NCBI GenBank assembly: GCA_951406725.2
Contig: OX597823.1
Coordinates: 113,150,001 to 113,214,000, forward strand
Source of the DNA: Octopus vulgaris
Lineage: Eukaryota
DNA length: 64,000 nucleotides
Reading direction: 5' to 3'
The translations under genes were made by a program, and so were the position numbers. The notes beneath the pieces were generated by a model that was not told where the DNA came from, made no database searches, and saw nothing but the letters and a program-made list of their open reading frames with translations. Shown here piece by piece: positions 12,426 through 42,222 of this stretch. Every line of letters begins with the position of its first letter. The stretch's first letter is position 1.

Positions 12426-12461
12426 GTTTCTGACGAAGAGCTTCGCTCGAAAAGTAAAAAC
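12426..12461 (+). ncRNA. Minimal type I hammerhead motif with damaged stem III, in a Penelope-like terminal repeat
   Basis: gttt CTGACGA a gagc ttc gctc GAAA agt A aaaac; related to the 17110 and 17562 copies. Confidence 0.55.
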
Positions 12462-15085: not shown

Positions 15086-16731
15086 TACATATATATCCAT
15101 ACACATAATTGTCCTTCTCATATCGAACTCATTATCTAAATGATGGAGCTTCGTTCAAACTTCTGTGGCGGTGAGGGTTCACCTTTTGAAATGACTAATC
15201 AATATTTATGAGTGATTTCAATAACTTTTGATTGGTGGATTGTGCATAGAATTTAGTACAATGTAGCAAATAAGAGATTATATGAATTTTGGGAAAGGCG
15301 GTTTAGTTCAACCCCAAAGCTATATATAAATGTTCACTATGACAACCGCAATGTCGATAGCACCATTGATTATGATGAAATATTAGTTGAGAAAAATAGT
15401 TCGTCTTATAGAATATGATGGCGGTAGTGGTTTTCATGGTGATATTGGTTGTGCCAATGATCGTGATGATACTCATGATGATGGTGATAAAAATGATAAA
15501 ATTGGTATTATGATGGATATATTATTGATAACAATTAATTACTGTGATGTCAACAATGGCCCTAACTATCATAATTACTGCAGAGAAAGAAAAGGTGGCG
15601 GTAACTGTGATAAAGATGAGTTTATAATTGTTATAAAGATGAAGAAAACGATGTCAACTATGATGAAGCAAATAACGATAGATGTAGAGTGTGATGACGA
15701 TGCTGATAAACAGTATAGTGGTGATGGAGATGGCGATGATTTCTGTAGTCTTACGATTTTACGTTCTTATATTCCCCACTCATTTTTCTTCTTTTTTGTC
15801 TAACGCTAAGAGATGTAACTGGATTAAGATTGTAATAAAACAATAGAAAATAAGACTTGTGATTAATTTATATCGTGATGACGGTAATGAAGATAACTAG
15901 ATATTACTTGGGAAGAATGATGGTTGACATTAAACGTCATAGTAATGTTTGTGGCAGCCGCAATATATACTTGCATTAAGGCGCATGCGTCGAATAGTGT
16001 ATGGCCTTTCTTCAGGTTCCTCAAAATAAATTGTTTACTGCTAGCTCCTTATTAATTACAAAATTCACTCCCACCACAAAACTTCCTCCTCCTCCTCCTC
16101 ATCCATTAACTACTATCCTACCGATAATATCATCAGATCAAACTAATAAATTTCTCAGTGTATGTTTATACACATGTACATGTGTGTGCGTGTATGTGTG
16201 CCATTGTTTGTGCGTGAGCTCTTCTATAATAATAATTTTATTTATCGATTTAATGTTTCATTTTGTGTCTTTCTTCTCCTCAACTAAGATTTATCACCTA
16301 CGCTCTCTCTTTCTCTCTCACACGCACTTTCTCAGTATATCTTGATGGCGTTCGCCGTTGTCTCCACTATAAGCACAACAAAAGTAACTAAATTTCTCAA
16401 TGTCCACAAGCCAATACCTTGAGATTTCCCTGGGTTCCGCTACTTAATGTTACTATCACAATTTTATTATCATTATTTTGATGATGATGATGATGATGAT
16501 GATGTGACGACGACGTATATGCGATGGCAAAAATCATGATATAAAAGTTTTCATCACATAATTTGAATTATAACTAATTTCATGCATTCTTCACAGACAC
16601 AGATGTATATTTAGATCAATTATTTAACCAGAATTACTTGCTTCATGCATCCAGATTAAAAAAATATAAGTGTGTTTATGAGTGCGTGAGTGTGCTTACG
16701 TATTTTCATCGTTATTTAGTAATGTATACGC

Positions 16732-16782
<51 letters not shown>

Positions 16783-16800
16783 AAGTAACTGTTGTTCTGC

Positions 16801-16855
<55 letters not shown>

Positions 16856-16989
16856 GTTATAAAATAAATTACTTTGCCGAGAACTCATTAGAAATAAGTA
16901 AAAAACTTTTTTAAAACTAACTGTTGTTGCTGCCACTAACGTTACTTTGAAAAATCTTTTAATGTCAAATTGATCATTCTTCCCAAGTA

Positions 16990-17031
<42 letters not shown>

Positions 17032-17109
17032 TGAATACTTGGTGAAATTGATTAATTAATTAATTTTACCTCAATTGTTGAAATATATATATATTATATA
17101 TATACACTC

Positions 17110-17665
17110 ATGTTTCTTTCTGTTGAAGAGCGTAGGCTCGAAAAGTAAAATACTTTCTTACTTTCCCGAGCGTCAAACTAATACACCTATTTGTTGTTTA
17201 TACACCTGTCTCCGTCTTTTGTTTTTCCGTAAATTTGAAGTATACACCTCCCAAAAACATCACACCACACTACACTACACCATACGACACTACACATCAC
17301 ATCACAAAACACCACCTCCACACCCATCCCCATTTTTTCACACCTACACATACACACACGCACAAGTCCAGGCCACCAGCCCTCTTTCACACGCACATAA
17401 TACTCTCTTATACACACACGCACCTTCGTGTATGGGGGTCATCTTTACTTTGTTATCTCCCCTACTTCTTCCCTCTCGTGTGTGACACTTCTGTCCGAGT
17501 CAGTCGTCATGATACATCGTTAGCCACTACACATATTTTTTTCTCTCCTTGTTTTTTCTGTGTCCCTTTCTGTAGAAGAGCGTAGGCTCGAAACGTAAAA
17601 GACTTATTCTATTCCTGAGCGTTATACTAATACAGCTGTTTGTTTGTACATCACCTGTCTTCGTA

Positions 17666-17670
<5 letters not shown>
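17110..17670 (+). mobile_element. Direct repeats 450 bp apart, each with a hammerhead-like motif (core CUGUNGA)
   Basis: gaagagcgtaggctcgaaa at 17125 and 17575 with shared downstream gagcgt...ctaataca...cacctgtct. Confidence 0.65.
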
Positions 17671-17741
<71 letters not shown>

Positions 17742-17745
<4 letters not shown>

Positions 17746-18662
17746 TATTACAATATATAAAAGGGCTTAGTAAAATAAATTACTTTGCCGCATACTGAAC
17801 TCATTAGAAATAGCAGCTAAAAAACTTTTTTAAAAACCATTTCTAAAACTTTCGTGAGTTGAGTTGACCAAACACTATACGAGAGAGATTTTCTTTAAGT
17901 ATTAGAAATGGTTTTTAAAAAAGTTTTTTAGCTGCTATTTCTAATGAGTTCAGTATGCGGCAAAGTAATTTATTTTACTAAGCCCTTTTATATATTGTAA
18001 TAATTTGAATTCGCCTTAAATGGTCCCTTTGCATACTGAACACTTGGTGAAATTAATTAATAATTAATTAATTTTACCCTCAATTGTTGAAATTATAATT
18101 AATCTCCCTCTAATTAATGCTTCGGATTTTACCGAAATAAGCAGAGTGTTTGTTGATTTTAACCCACGCTGGTGGAAAGGGGAGGACAGAAATTCTTCGC
18201 TTGCATGTTTGAGTTTGTTGGCACTGTTAGTTACGAGCAGATCTTCGAAGGCGATGAGAGGCCGAAAGAGTATGCTCTGACTTTCAGTGTTTTCAAATCC
18301 AAACCATGGAGTTTCTGAGCTGATGATAGAAGTGTCTTGATGACTAATCTTGAAACGTACGTTCTCAAATAACCTTTGCATTTGATTTTTTTATGTCTTT
18401 ACCCCCAAACTTTCGTGAGTTGAGTTGACCAAACACTATACGAGAGAGATTTTCTTTAAATATTAGAAATGGTTTTTAAAAAAGTTTTTAAAAAAGTTTT
18501 TTAGCTGCTATTTCTAATGAGTTCAGTATGCGGCAAAGTAATTTATTTTACTAAGCCCTTTTATATATTGTAATAATTTGAATTCGCCTTAAATGGTCCC
18601 TTTGCATACTGAACACTTGGTGAAATTAATTAATAATTAATTAATTTTACCCTCAATTGTTG

Positions 18663-18670
<8 letters not shown>
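17742..18670 (+). mobile_element. Young retrozyme/Penelope-like insertion: inverted arm plus ~1.45 copies of a 561-bp monomer, in (TA)n
   Basis: 17742-17846 is the reverse complement of 17902-18006; 17847-18097 is repeated almost identically at 18407-18670. Confidence 0.8.
18316..18367 (+). ncRNA. Type I hammerhead ribozyme motif
   Basis: tgag CTGATGA [tagaagt..actaatctt] GAA ACGTACGT T ctca: 4-bp stem I, palindromic stem III, imperfect stem II. Confidence 0.65.
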
Positions 18671-18754
<84 letters not shown>

Positions 18755-18768
18755 CATATATTTATATA

Positions 18769-18957
18769 TATCTGTAAATATAATATGTGATAATTATTCA
18801 GTAGTCATGATATAACTCCGAGTTTCGGATGTCGGGGCGGAAACCCACGCCGGCATCTCTTCAGTTATCGGGCCGGCGTGGGTTTCCGCCCTGACATCCG
18901 AAACTCGGAGTTTTATCATGGCTACCGAATAATTGTCACATATTATATTTACAGATA
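18769..18957. repeat. 86-bp inverted repeat with 17-nt spacer containing a minus-strand HHR motif (18809-18869)
   Basis: Arms 18769-18854 / 18872-18957. The minus strand reads gataa CTGAAGA gatgccgg..ccgacatc c GAA ACTCGGAGT T atatc. Confidence 0.75.
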
Positions 18958-19185
18958 GATTCCTCTATTTACATAATATCGAGGTCTCTTTCATTCTTTC
19001 GTTGTCTTACCATTTCTATCAACATATATATATATATGATGTGTGTGTATGTATGTATGTGTGTGTATGTATGTATGTGTGTGTGCGCGTGTATATATAT
19101 ATATATATATACATACATATATGTATATATATAGGTGTATATATATATATATACATACGTACATGCGTTCAGACATACGTACATG

Positions 19186-19423
19186 AATTACTGAGAATTC
19201 TGTAGTCACTCTATCCCGATTACAAGTTCGGATTTATACCTGGGATTATTGAGACCCTGAGATATGTGACACACTACCGATCTTGAGAAATTAGGCTTCT
19301 CAAAACCAGAAAGGAGAAAGCTAATTCGAAGACTACCGATCCAATCCATCGCTAGAACTGTAAAAAATCTATAAAACTGTAAAAATCTATAAATCTATAA
19401 ACTTTCCAGAAGTTTATCATTTA
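19186..19423 (+). pseudogene. C-terminus of an RLE-type (R4/Dong/CRE-like) non-LTR retrotransposon ORF
   Basis: Translates with a stop and frameshifts as ELLRIL*SLYPDYKFGFIPGIIETLRYVTH / LEKLGFSKPERRKLIRRLPIQSIARTVKIYKT..FQKFII*, resembling the end of a restriction-like endonuclease domain. Confidence 0.6.
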
Positions 19424-20288
19424 AATATATATGTGCATGTATAGATATGCAACTGTATGCATGGGAATATATACGTAAAACATACAAATCTGCACGCACA
19501 TAGATACGTACATAAATGTAAAAATAATGACGTACATACATACATACATACCCCACATACATACAGACATACATAAATACATACAGTGGCAGACTGGCCA
19601 GGGGGTCACCTTGACCGACATTAGACGTTAGAGTCCATATATAAATTAAATGTTGGAAAAACTTTTGGATTAACTACAGAAATTAACTCATGAAATAATC
19701 CTTTTTAAGTTGATTTCTCAAGTAATTAAATCATTCCCTTCTAAGTGAAACTTTTTATTTATGCAATACACTGTATATTCTATTAGGTAAATAATTACCG
19801 TTATTTGCCTTGTCAAGTACCTTACAAAGTGTGATGTCAAATTCAGCATCAACCCGTCGTAATTGAATAAAGTGATCTATATAATAACGTTTCTTCGTTT
19901 ACCCGTTATACTTCATTTAGTTAGAGAGGTGGAGGTGGCATGAGAGACGTGAGTGAGAGAGAAATGGGGAGGGTGAGAGAGAGAGGGTGTTGAGAAGAAA
20001 GACGTGATGAAGATGTAGAGTAAATATGTATAAAGCCGAATCAGTCACGTCGTTAGTTGAATGGAGAGGCGAAGAGCGATAGAAAATGACAATGAGAGAA
20101 AAAGAGGGAGAGAGAAGTGTTAACGACGGCCTTTGGGTGTGGGAAGGGAAAGGTGAAGAGAAAGACATGTTTGGGATACAATATTTAGCAGAGGTGAATA
20201 TTCTGGTGGTGAGGTGAAGGAAAGGCAGATAAAGTGAGATGGTCAGGGAAGGTAGTTACATCAAGATTAAATAGATAGATAGATAGAT

Positions 20289-28579: not shown

Positions 28580-28715
28580 CTGTGTGGTAAGCAGCTTGCT
28601 TACCAACCCCATGGTTCCGGGTTCATTCCACTGCGTGGCACCTTGAGCAAGTGTCTTCTACTATAGCCTCGAGCCGACCAAAGCCTTGTGAGTGGCAACT
28701 GAAAGAAGTCCGTCG

Positions 28716-28780
<65 letters not shown>

Positions 28781-29010
28781 GCAAGTGTGTGTATATGTTT
28801 GTGTGTCTGAGTTTGTCCCCCCAACATCGCTTGACAACCGATACTGATGTGTTTACGTCCCCGTAACTTAGCGGTTTGGCAAAAGAGACCGATAGAATAA
28901 GTACTAGGCTTACAAAGAATAAGTCCTGGGGGGCGATTTGCTCGGCTAATGGCGGTGCTCCAGCATGGCCGCAGTCAAATAACTGAAAGAAGTAAAAGAC
29001 TAAAAGAGTA
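28580..29010 (+). mobile_element. SINE family 2 (tRNA head, ccttgggcaag-type CORE-like block, internal TA/TG microsatellite)
   Basis: tgtgtggtaagcagcttgc..ccttgagcaagtgtcttc..ggcggtgctccagcatggccgcagtc..taaaagagta. Confidence 0.9.
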
Positions 29011-29294
29011 TATGTATGTTTGTGTGTATTTGTGTGCGTGCGTGTGTGTGTATGTGTGTGTATGAGTGTATGTGTAAAATCTGTGAAGATTCATTGATTT
29101 CAAAAGTAATAACGTCAATTTCAGACCACCAAAAACAATCTCATTTCCAAGCGCAGAAGCCCGGTGATAATATATTTCCTAGGTTCCTTGTCAGCTTTCT
29201 CACTTTCCAGTGGTGTGTGCTGTATACTCAATGAAATCAATCTAATACAGGCATAGTACATGGATACGAACGCTCAAGATGTTATTAAATCATT

Positions 29295-29521: not shown

Positions 29522-29951
29522 CTTACTCTTTTACTTGTTTCAGTTATTTGACTGTGGCCATGCTGGAGTACCGCCTTTAGTCGAGCAAATCGACCCCGGG
29601 ACTTATTCTTTGTAAGCCTAGTACTTAATCTATCGGTCTCTTTTGCCGAACCGCTAAGTTACGGGGACATAAAGGCACGCGCATCGGTTGTCAAGTGATG
29701 TTGGGGGGACAAACACAGACACACAAACGTGCACACACACACAACACACACACACACACGCACACACACACACATATATATATATACATGACAGGCTGTT
29801 TCAGTTTCCGTCTACCAAATCCATTCACAAGGCTTTGTTGGCCCGATGCTTTAGTAGAAGACACTTGCCCAAGGTGCCACGCAGTGGTATTGAACCCAGA
29901 ACCATGTGGTTGGTAAACAAGCTACTTACCACACAGTCACTCCTGCGCCTA
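29522..29951 (-). mobile_element. SINE family 2
   Basis: Reverse complement of the 28580 copy. Confidence 0.9.
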
Positions 29952-33824: not shown

Positions 33825-34021
33825 TACTATTTTACTTGTTTCAGTCATTTGACTGCGGCCATGCTGGAGCACCACACCGCCTTTAATCGAGCAACTCGAC
33901 CCAATGACTTATTCTTTGTAAGCCCAGTACTTATTCTATCGGTTACTTATGCCGAACCGCTAAGTTACAGGGACATAAACAATGCTAGGGGGACAAACAC
34001 AGACACACAAACATACACGCA

Positions 34022-34095
<74 letters not shown>

Positions 34096-34257
34096 TACGA
34101 CGGGCTTCTTTCTGTTTCCGTCTACCAAATCCACTCACAAGGCTTTGGTCGGCCCGAGGCTATAGTAGAAGACACTTGCCCAAGGTGCCACGCAGTGGGA
34201 CTGAACCTGGAACCATGTGGTTGGTAAACAAGCTACTTACCACACAGCCACTCCTGC
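33825..34257 (-). mobile_element. SINE family 2
   Basis: Same consensus, with internal (CA)n(TA)n. Confidence 0.9.
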
Positions 34258-41578: not shown

Positions 41579-41772
41579 TGATGTGAGATGGTTAAATAGA
41601 GGGAAATATTAGAGTTCAATATGAGGGATTATTTTGGAAAAGGAAGGAAATAAGGAGTGTAGAGGCAAATAGGTGAATGAAAGTAGAAATGAAACTAAAA
41701 ATATGTTATATGTTATAGTTGCAATTGGATTTAAGACACACACACACACACATGTATATATATATATATATA

Positions 41773-42000
41773 TCTTACTCTTTTTCTCTTTTACTTGTTT
41801 CAGTCATTTGACTGCGGCCATGCTGGAGCACCGACTTTAGTCGAGCAACTCGACCCCGGGATTTATTCTTTGTAAGCCCAGTACCTATTCTTTCGGTCTC
41901 TTTTGCTGAACCGCTAAGTGACGGGGTCGTAAACACACCAGCATCGGTTGTCAAGCAATGCTAGGGGGACAAACACAGACACACAAACACATACACACAC

Positions 42001-42061
<61 letters not shown>

Positions 42062-42222
42062 TACGACAGGCTTCGTTCAGTTTCCGTCTACCAAATCCAC
42101 TCACAAGGCTTTGGTCGGCCCGAAGCTATAGCAGAAGACACTTGCCCAAGATGCCACGCAGTGGAACTGAACCCGGAACCATGTGGTTGGTAAGCAAGCT
42201 ACTTACCACACAGCCACACCTG
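41773..42222 (-). mobile_element. SINE family 2, full length
   Basis: Same consensus as the 28580 and 29522 copies. Confidence 0.9.

Follow-up and report, generated by a model that had tools for sequence, protein, structure and literature searches.

A non-coding 561-nt hammerhead monomer with the layout of a Penelope-type insertion in the Octopus vulgaris genome

Positions 17742 to 18670 of a 64,000-nt stretch of Octopus vulgaris DNA (referred to as a whole as the window) are occupied by a repeat insertion in a setting that is AT-rich (27-40% GC), carries 128 microsatellite rows and contains no recognizable gene when 150 of its stop-to-stop frames are compared with Pfam. The microsatellite listing and the sequence place (TA)n on both sides, as a preliminary description made from the letters had it: a run that is either target or tail, (TC)19.5 followed by (TA)18, lies on the left (17669-17741), and a TA run extends from 18667 to 18765 on the right. 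These runs at the two outer ends mask any target-site duplication. Between them, an inverted, 5'-truncated arm on the minus strand (17742-17846) stands head-to-head with a plus-strand forward part of 821 nt, or 1.44 units, forming a partial tandem. Reverse-complemented, the arm matches 17902-18006 with 0 mismatches over its 105 nt (the preliminary description called it near-perfect), and a repeat search stretches the match to 110 nt at 99%. The mirror goes no further than the edge of the element and does not include flank. At its inner end the arm overlaps the forward part by 1 nt; this end lies at the 5' foot of a plus-strand hairpin, an imperfect palindrome at 17901-17945 (folding z -3.25).

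The forward part comprises one full 561-nt non-coding monomer (17846-18406, 34% GC), strongly structured as RNA by folding (z -6.6), and a second direct repeat that ends in (TA)n (18407-18670). Repeat comparison identifies the first direct repeat as 17846-18097, a pseudo-LTR-like, 5'-truncated upstream unit on the plus strand that begins 44 nt past the predicted hammerhead cut position of the preceding unit. It aligns with 18407-18670, also on the plus strand, over 252 bases. A single substitution (17899 G / 18460 A) separates the two, and the second copy carries in addition a tandem duplication of 12 bp (18472-18483), the period being 561 at the start and 573 past the duplication. The near-identical direct repeats of about 250 bp with a period of 561 that were first described are thereby recovered.

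A single predicted type I hammerhead is present at the locus, outside the duplicated part (18316-18367, plus strand, predicted cut after 18363). It comprises a 4-bp stem I, CUGAUGA, a stem II with U·U and then 3+3 bp, GAAA, a stem III that is an 8-nt palindrome (self-dimer -9.8 kcal/mol), and a GUU site, a poor cleaver. When 5000 dinucleotide shuffles of the monomer were scanned, 0 gave a strict match, 1 a looser one and 15 a match of any kind, and in the whole window the strict test found 3 matches against 0 in 40 shuffled windows; strict here means a palindromic stem III and a stem II of at least 3 pairs, in a descriptor written after the motif had been seen. A descriptor scan of both strands of the window gave four matches, at 18320, 60082, 60797 and 63090, all with a palindromic stem III. 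Rfam returned no hammerhead match, and no match of any kind, over the whole 64 kb at gathering score, and with E up to 10 over 16500-20000 none of its 63 matches was to a hammerhead, most being microRNA models on microsatellites. The one hammerhead of the preliminary description is thus sustained by the descriptor match and by the 0 of 5000 strict shuffles, as a non-canonical motif that Rfam does not match.

Several features bear on how well this ribozyme might work. The hammerhead fold is not the minimum-energy fold (-3.1 vs -7.2 kcal/mol; fold z +0.3), and the motif is without the G10.1-C11.1 pair, which has been called highly conserved (PMC4209133). The axolotl retrozyme hammerhead HHR_Amex2 is likewise described as having a stem II closed by U·U (PMC7229834), and the 20 of 205 loose ends listed include a relative in which CUGACGA precedes an A, so that its stem II would be closed by an A-U pair. 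Among the 40 family variants listed of 52, none falls in the hammerhead core, stem I or stem III, and the three inside the motif, together with the indels, are all in the stem II loops. Penelope hammerheads are described as having a palindromic stem III and low, dimer-dependent activity (PMC4209133), and no in vitro cleavage was seen for 8 of the 9 Xenopus retrozymes predicted (doi 10.64898/2026.07.22.740005). From its sequence, we read the hammerhead motif of the 561-nt unit as a genuine, if probably weak, predicted ribozyme.

The family to which the locus belongs is visible in public sequencing data, where the stretch or part of it occurs in 20 of the 24 runs listed, from 10 studies and under five organism labels; none of these 20 is recorded as RNA. 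Contigs of four runs were compared with 18080-18684 at 80% likeness (3727, 696, 27 and 506 contigs), and in each run 28 of 29 bins were covered, the uncovered last bin being the skipped TA run. Summed contig depth reached 1.56 million in run X1 and 0.49 million in run X3, with 6-60 for the lowest contigs listed; this sum, although itself no copy number, suggests thousands of family copies as an order of magnitude. By likeness to the locus, the X1 contigs fall into 1057 at 99% or above, 1412 at 95-99%, 1031 at 90-95% and 227 below 90%, and the family is therefore diverged, with subfamilies. The head-to-tail junction at 18097/18098 is crossed by contigs in all four runs, records 1, 9, 10 and 17 among them, in near-identical and 85%-identical forms, and the share of contigs that continue into unlike sequence is 0, 0, 0.01 and 0. 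This continuity with almost no run-on argues for a self-closed, non-coding unit. The points where diverged contigs rejoin the unit are 18341-18343, in the hammerhead's 3' half, and 18490, at block 1, one of the blocks discussed below. Family variants respect the predicted RNA fold only modestly: 12 of 39 break pairs where 17.8 are expected (P 0.025), and there is one compensatory pair.

An autonomous reading of the element finds no counterpart in its coding content. Neither a reverse transcriptase nor a GIY-YIG domain was found in the 150 longer ones of the window's 213 complex stop-to-stop frames of at least 55 aa, and the window scan against Pfam gave two weak matches, both under the curated cut-offs. 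The four frames of the element itself, the longest of 108 aa, have no Pfam match. Lacking an ORF, the element is not an autonomous Penelope-like element. It could still be that the unit represents no more than the terminal repeat of an autonomous Penelope-like element and the locus its 5'-truncated end, in which case the family would lead no non-autonomous existence of its own: Penelope insertions are mostly 5'-truncated (PMC8557442), Xenopus retrozyme families match the pLTRs of coding elements (doi 10.64898/2026.07.22.740005), and short contigs at such repeats could miss a rare coding neighbour. We consider this improbable, given that the unit closes on itself in both near-identical and 85%-identical contigs with a run-on share of at most 0.01, and that no known protein domain is found in its four frames.

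The copies at the locus also share alleles that are rare in the family. A rare T at the site equivalent to 18568 is present in the arm and in both direct repeats, A accounting for 98% of the summed X1 depth, and minority alleles at 18424, 18429 and 18441 are common to both direct repeats; the arm and the repeats therefore derive from one template or one source locus. The two direct repeats diverge by 1/252, or 0.4% (95% Poisson range 0.01-2.2%). Because the three copies are near-identical, the insertion is recent, and to this extent the preliminary description holds; its wording 'very young' has partial support only, the locus having gained two changes and departing from the X1 majority allele at 20 of the 40 variant sites listed. 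At 18250, the allele of the locus is missing from run X3 and in the minority in X1. In run X4, which carries another organism label, contigs of records 27 and 31 show one difference from the locus at a depth of 15-17, which could reflect a shared subfamily or a labelling issue. Near-identical contigs were also seen in run X2, for example one of 227 bp with 1 difference. We set these X2 contigs aside as evidence of expression, since the RNA nature of the run is only guessed and contig depth gives neither level nor strand.

The same contigs bear on whether the layout is an assembly artefact, either a collapsed tandem or a fold-back chimera. Such structures trouble assemblers (PMC8557442), no contig spans the stretch, and the strand-change joint of the arm is not among the contigs listed for the four runs, which cannot show its absence. 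An artefact is nevertheless highly unlikely, as a substitution and a 12-bp duplication set the repeats apart, the mirror stays clear of the flank, and the tandem junction is present in four of four runs.

Older remnants of the family, and other repeats, lie around the element. A minus-strand fragment at 16853-16916 (83% identical) is bracketed by a direct repeat matching at 22 of 24 positions (16783-16805 and 16917-16940), with a (TA)24 run inside the duplication; this suggests that the TA run there was made or expanded at or after insertion and was not merely a pre-existing target. A further fragment at 17028-17094 is 89% identical and has the same 3' end point before (TA)n as the main element. 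We do not read 16843-17089 as a single older unit of arm plus forward part, as its middle is unlike the monomer and two separate fragments fit better. Minimal hammerhead-like cores (CUGACGA/CUGUUGA ... GAAA), which we take to be typical Penelope ends, occur in repeats at 12430-12452, 17111-17215 and 17561-17664, one of them adjoining the left microsatellite flank of the element. Directly to the right of the TA run is a MITE-like palindrome of 195 bp (18766-18960; 89-nt arms, 93% complementary), and a dispersed, SINE-like repeat of 430-480 bp is present in four copies, 80-85% identical and in both orientations (28580-29047, 29523-29945, 33825-34256 and 41736-42222). A third non-coding hammerhead family is found at 59909-60335, 63033-63345 and 61095-61255; its motif has CUGAUGA, a C·A-closed stem II, a palindromic ACUAGU stem III and GUC, its 3' ends lie about 225 nt past the cut and are followed by simple repeats, and its first copy has an inverted arm.

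TA runs are unstable, which lends some weight to a purely DNA-level origin of the 561-nt locus, in which a satellite or foldback repeat was duplicated and inverted by repair or slippage at a fragile TA run and the hammerhead is a relic; the unit is also rich in hairpins, and the arm ends at one. This origin seems very unlikely to us. Both the mirror and the duplication stop at the edges of the element and take no flank, an older relative has the same 3' end point, the hammerhead core is free of variants among the 40 of 52 listed, and partial tandems or inverted arms are seen as well in two further hammerhead families of the window.

One of these is a 468-bp repeat with its own canonical type I hammerhead at about 60791-60884, which has a long, G-C closed stem II, a 12-nt palindromic stem III and GUC and was missed by Rfam. 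The 468 locus (60419-61443) starts 9 nt past its predicted cut, and the 3' part of another family breaks into it at 61095-61263. Three short plus-strand blocks of the 561-nt unit recur in this repeat, in the order that the preliminary description gave. Block 1 (17931-17949; 17 of 19 identical) is overlapped by the hairpin at the foot of the arm, and its second copy (18504-18522) is within the longest variant-free stretch, 18472-18568, as judged from 40 of the 52 family variants. Block 2 is a 16-nt exact match (18082-18097), and its second copy (18655-18670) is the 3' end of the element and would be the main point at which reverse transcription began. Block 3, of 9 nt, was found by sequence comparison at 18167-18175. 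A chain of short ungapped blocks between the two monomers scores 22 vs 10.9 +/- 1.5. None of 2000 shuffles attains this value, nor does any of 595 real stretches of the window, and this best chain leaves the third motif unused. The best single ungapped block (16 nt) exceeds all 2000 shuffles but is equalled by 10 of the 595 real stretches, and a local alignment of the whole monomers is marginal (score 50, reached by 26 of 1000 shuffles and 7 of 572 real stretches). The hammerheads of the two repeats are unlike in all three stems. Of the proposal that the two belong to one diverged superfamily, what stands is therefore a set of short, ordered blocks beyond chance; the monomer bodies are marginally alike, the hammerheads differ, and descent of the whole monomer is unproven. 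As far as the sequences go, a shared recognition module would fit the blocks as well as common descent of the whole monomer.

Block 2 is the point at which both the 561-nt insertion and the older fragment at 17028-17094 end in (TA)n, whereas the 468 locus ends elsewhere. Taken together, blocks 1 and 2 look like a hammerhead core that has no stem I, and in the 468 repeat the halves of this core are 37 nt apart. Naiad elements are reported to carry 'half-core' motifs 35-50 nt apart (PMC8557442), and by analogy the spacing in the 468 repeat may be a lead. We rejected the shared blocks as a second working hammerhead in the 561-nt family, since they have CUAAUGA instead of CUGAUGA, are without stem I and match no descriptor. 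Family A (60025-60335 and 63033-63345) was likewise rejected as kin of either monomer, its scores being reached by 583 and 936 of 1000 shuffles. A metagenome scan with the 19-nt shared block gave 71 loci, none with a second block or a TA run; these were rejected as relatives and put down to chance, the best match to either monomer being 36 bp around the motif.

When the locus is set beside known systems, it resembles two of them in different respects. Like the metazoan non-LTR retrozymes (Cervera and de la Pena 2020, PMC7229834; doi 10.64898/2026.07.22.740005), it is a non-coding, low-GC, structured head-to-tail unit with one type I hammerhead, and very abundant. At 561 nt it is longer than the 170-400 nt of studied retrozyme circles and within the consensus range of 51-972 nt given by Li, Clavereau and Pollet 2026. 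An 'active' retrozyme dimer as defined by Li et al. needs a hammerhead in at least two consecutive units, whereas the locus has 1.44 units and one hammerhead; it also has an inverted arm, and the word 'inverted' occurs 0 times in the accessible text of the retrozyme paper (PMC7229834). With EN+ Penelope-like elements (PMC3846280, PMC8557442, PMC11167929, PMC4209133) it shares a pseudo-LTR partial tandem, an adjacent shorter inverted copy placed head-to-head, a palindrome at the junction, different ends at the outer edges, a probably TA-rich target and a palindromic stem III. It differs from the autonomous members in having no reverse transcriptase or GIY-YIG frame, and its outer ends differ by about 90 nt, compared with a tail of 30-40 nt in Penelope-like elements. 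A (TA)n bias is reported for Naiad and Neptune (PMC8557442), and by analogy the (TA)n preference here would point to one of these two clades; Naiads lack canonical hammerheads. MRC1 of Chlamydomonas and other non-autonomous Chlamys elements (PMC8557442) are likewise non-coding, with pLTRs, head-to-tail copies and the need for a Penelope-like partner. Unlike the 561-nt element, Chlamys form a green-algal clade that is mostly without canonical hammerheads, favours (CA)n or (C)n and has known autonomous partners. On its sequence, the element appears to work like a Penelope insertion and to be built like a non-LTR retrozyme, and we do not file it as an active retrozyme.

We consider it likely that the locus is a Penelope-mobilized non-coding element, and a Penelope-type insertion of a non-coding hammerhead monomer, as first described, is supported by a layout that matches published ones (PMC3846280; PMC8557442) and by an abundant, non-coding family. 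In the typical Penelope layout, a shorter inverted pLTR lies next to two direct ones in head-to-head orientation, and the junction holds a palindrome (PMC3846280; PMC8557442). A purified Penelope-clade protein from Anolis cuts and extends both strands at AT-rich DNA in vitro, and it initiates reverse transcription internally on the RNA, at two positions that lie downstream of the hammerhead (PMC11167929). The 561-nt insertion was likely copied in trans into an AT-rich site by the reverse transcriptase and endonuclease of a putative autonomous partner.

Within this Penelope-type reading, we lean towards a version in which the template was a linear RNA of more than unit length. A tandem source locus would be transcribed into such an RNA, and a weak, dimer-type hammerhead would cut some of the junctions only, leaving a linear RNA with its 5' end at the cut site and one uncut ribozyme. 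The partner protein would attach close to the conserved blocks and nick the TA run on each of its strands. One nick may then prime internally at block 2 (18666, about 290 nt past the hammerhead cut) and be extended by 821 nt, stopping 44 nt short of the 5' end of the RNA, and the other nick may prime about 90 nt further upstream (18006) and be extended by 105 nt before stalling at the foot of the hairpin. Head-to-head joining of the two cDNA ends would complete the insertion. An alternative origin for the junction in Penelope elements, self-priming on an antisense template, has been put forward (PMC3846280).

The main competitor to a linear template is a circular monomer RNA, released by hammerhead cuts and closed by a ligase of the host, around which the reverse transcriptase would run 1.44 times, as in the classical retrozyme route. 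A circle has been proposed for both Penelope elements and retrozymes (PMC4209133; PMC7229834), the near-identity of the copies and their shared rare alleles would fit one molecule, and the monomer is strongly structured (z -6.6). We nonetheless regard the circle as the less likely template. It gives no reason to stop near the cut, and both tandem loci start shortly past it (44 nt at the 561 locus and 9 nt at the 468 locus), so that a linear RNA with a ribozyme-made 5' end is favored over a circle, although this pattern consists of two loci and was noticed after the fact. In addition, the ribozyme looks weak, folding as a circle brings no gain in stability over the linear form (-154.4 vs -159.2), and for the Anolis protein uncut RNA was the main substrate in vitro, with no Anolis reads ending at the cut site (PMC11167929).

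A more speculative extension of the preferred linear-template reading concerns the shared blocks, and we hold it to be doubtful when all its parts are taken together. The blocks might be a portable recognition and priming signal for a Penelope reverse transcriptase, with the look of a relic second hammerhead at the start of the cDNA (CU[G/A]AUGAG ... GAAA, a palindromic AUUA/UAAU stem and UC, without stem I); the working hammerhead would then only set the 5' end of the RNA, and priming would seed the (TA)n runs. If true, these elements would form a modular, SINE-like class of passengers of Penelope, and from their insertions one could read the two priming sites as well as the ribozyme cut.

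Retrozymes have already been argued to be non-autonomous Penelope derivatives (doi 10.64898/2026.07.22.740005), and the 561-nt family is likely new as a further member of this known class of retrozyme-like elements. An annotation of octopus repeats describes 31 recently active Penelope-like families, and the word 'ribozyme' is absent from its accessible text (PMC13282606). We found no description of the 561-nt family in the literature covered; subscription papers, supplements and repeat databases were mostly outside that scope, and the family could therefore be catalogued already. Nothing at the 561 locus points to a host function. The case for mobilization of animal retrozymes by Penelope elements has so far been built on co-occurrence, on hammerheads in common and on pLTR homology (PMC7229834; doi 10.64898/2026.07.22.740005), and a non-coding hammerhead monomer with a full Penelope insertion footprint is a more direct, though still circumstantial, sign of such mobilization. 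As the family apparently has many copies, a census of their ends could test the role of the Penelope hammerhead, whether in making a linear 5' end or a circle, and where reverse transcription starts.
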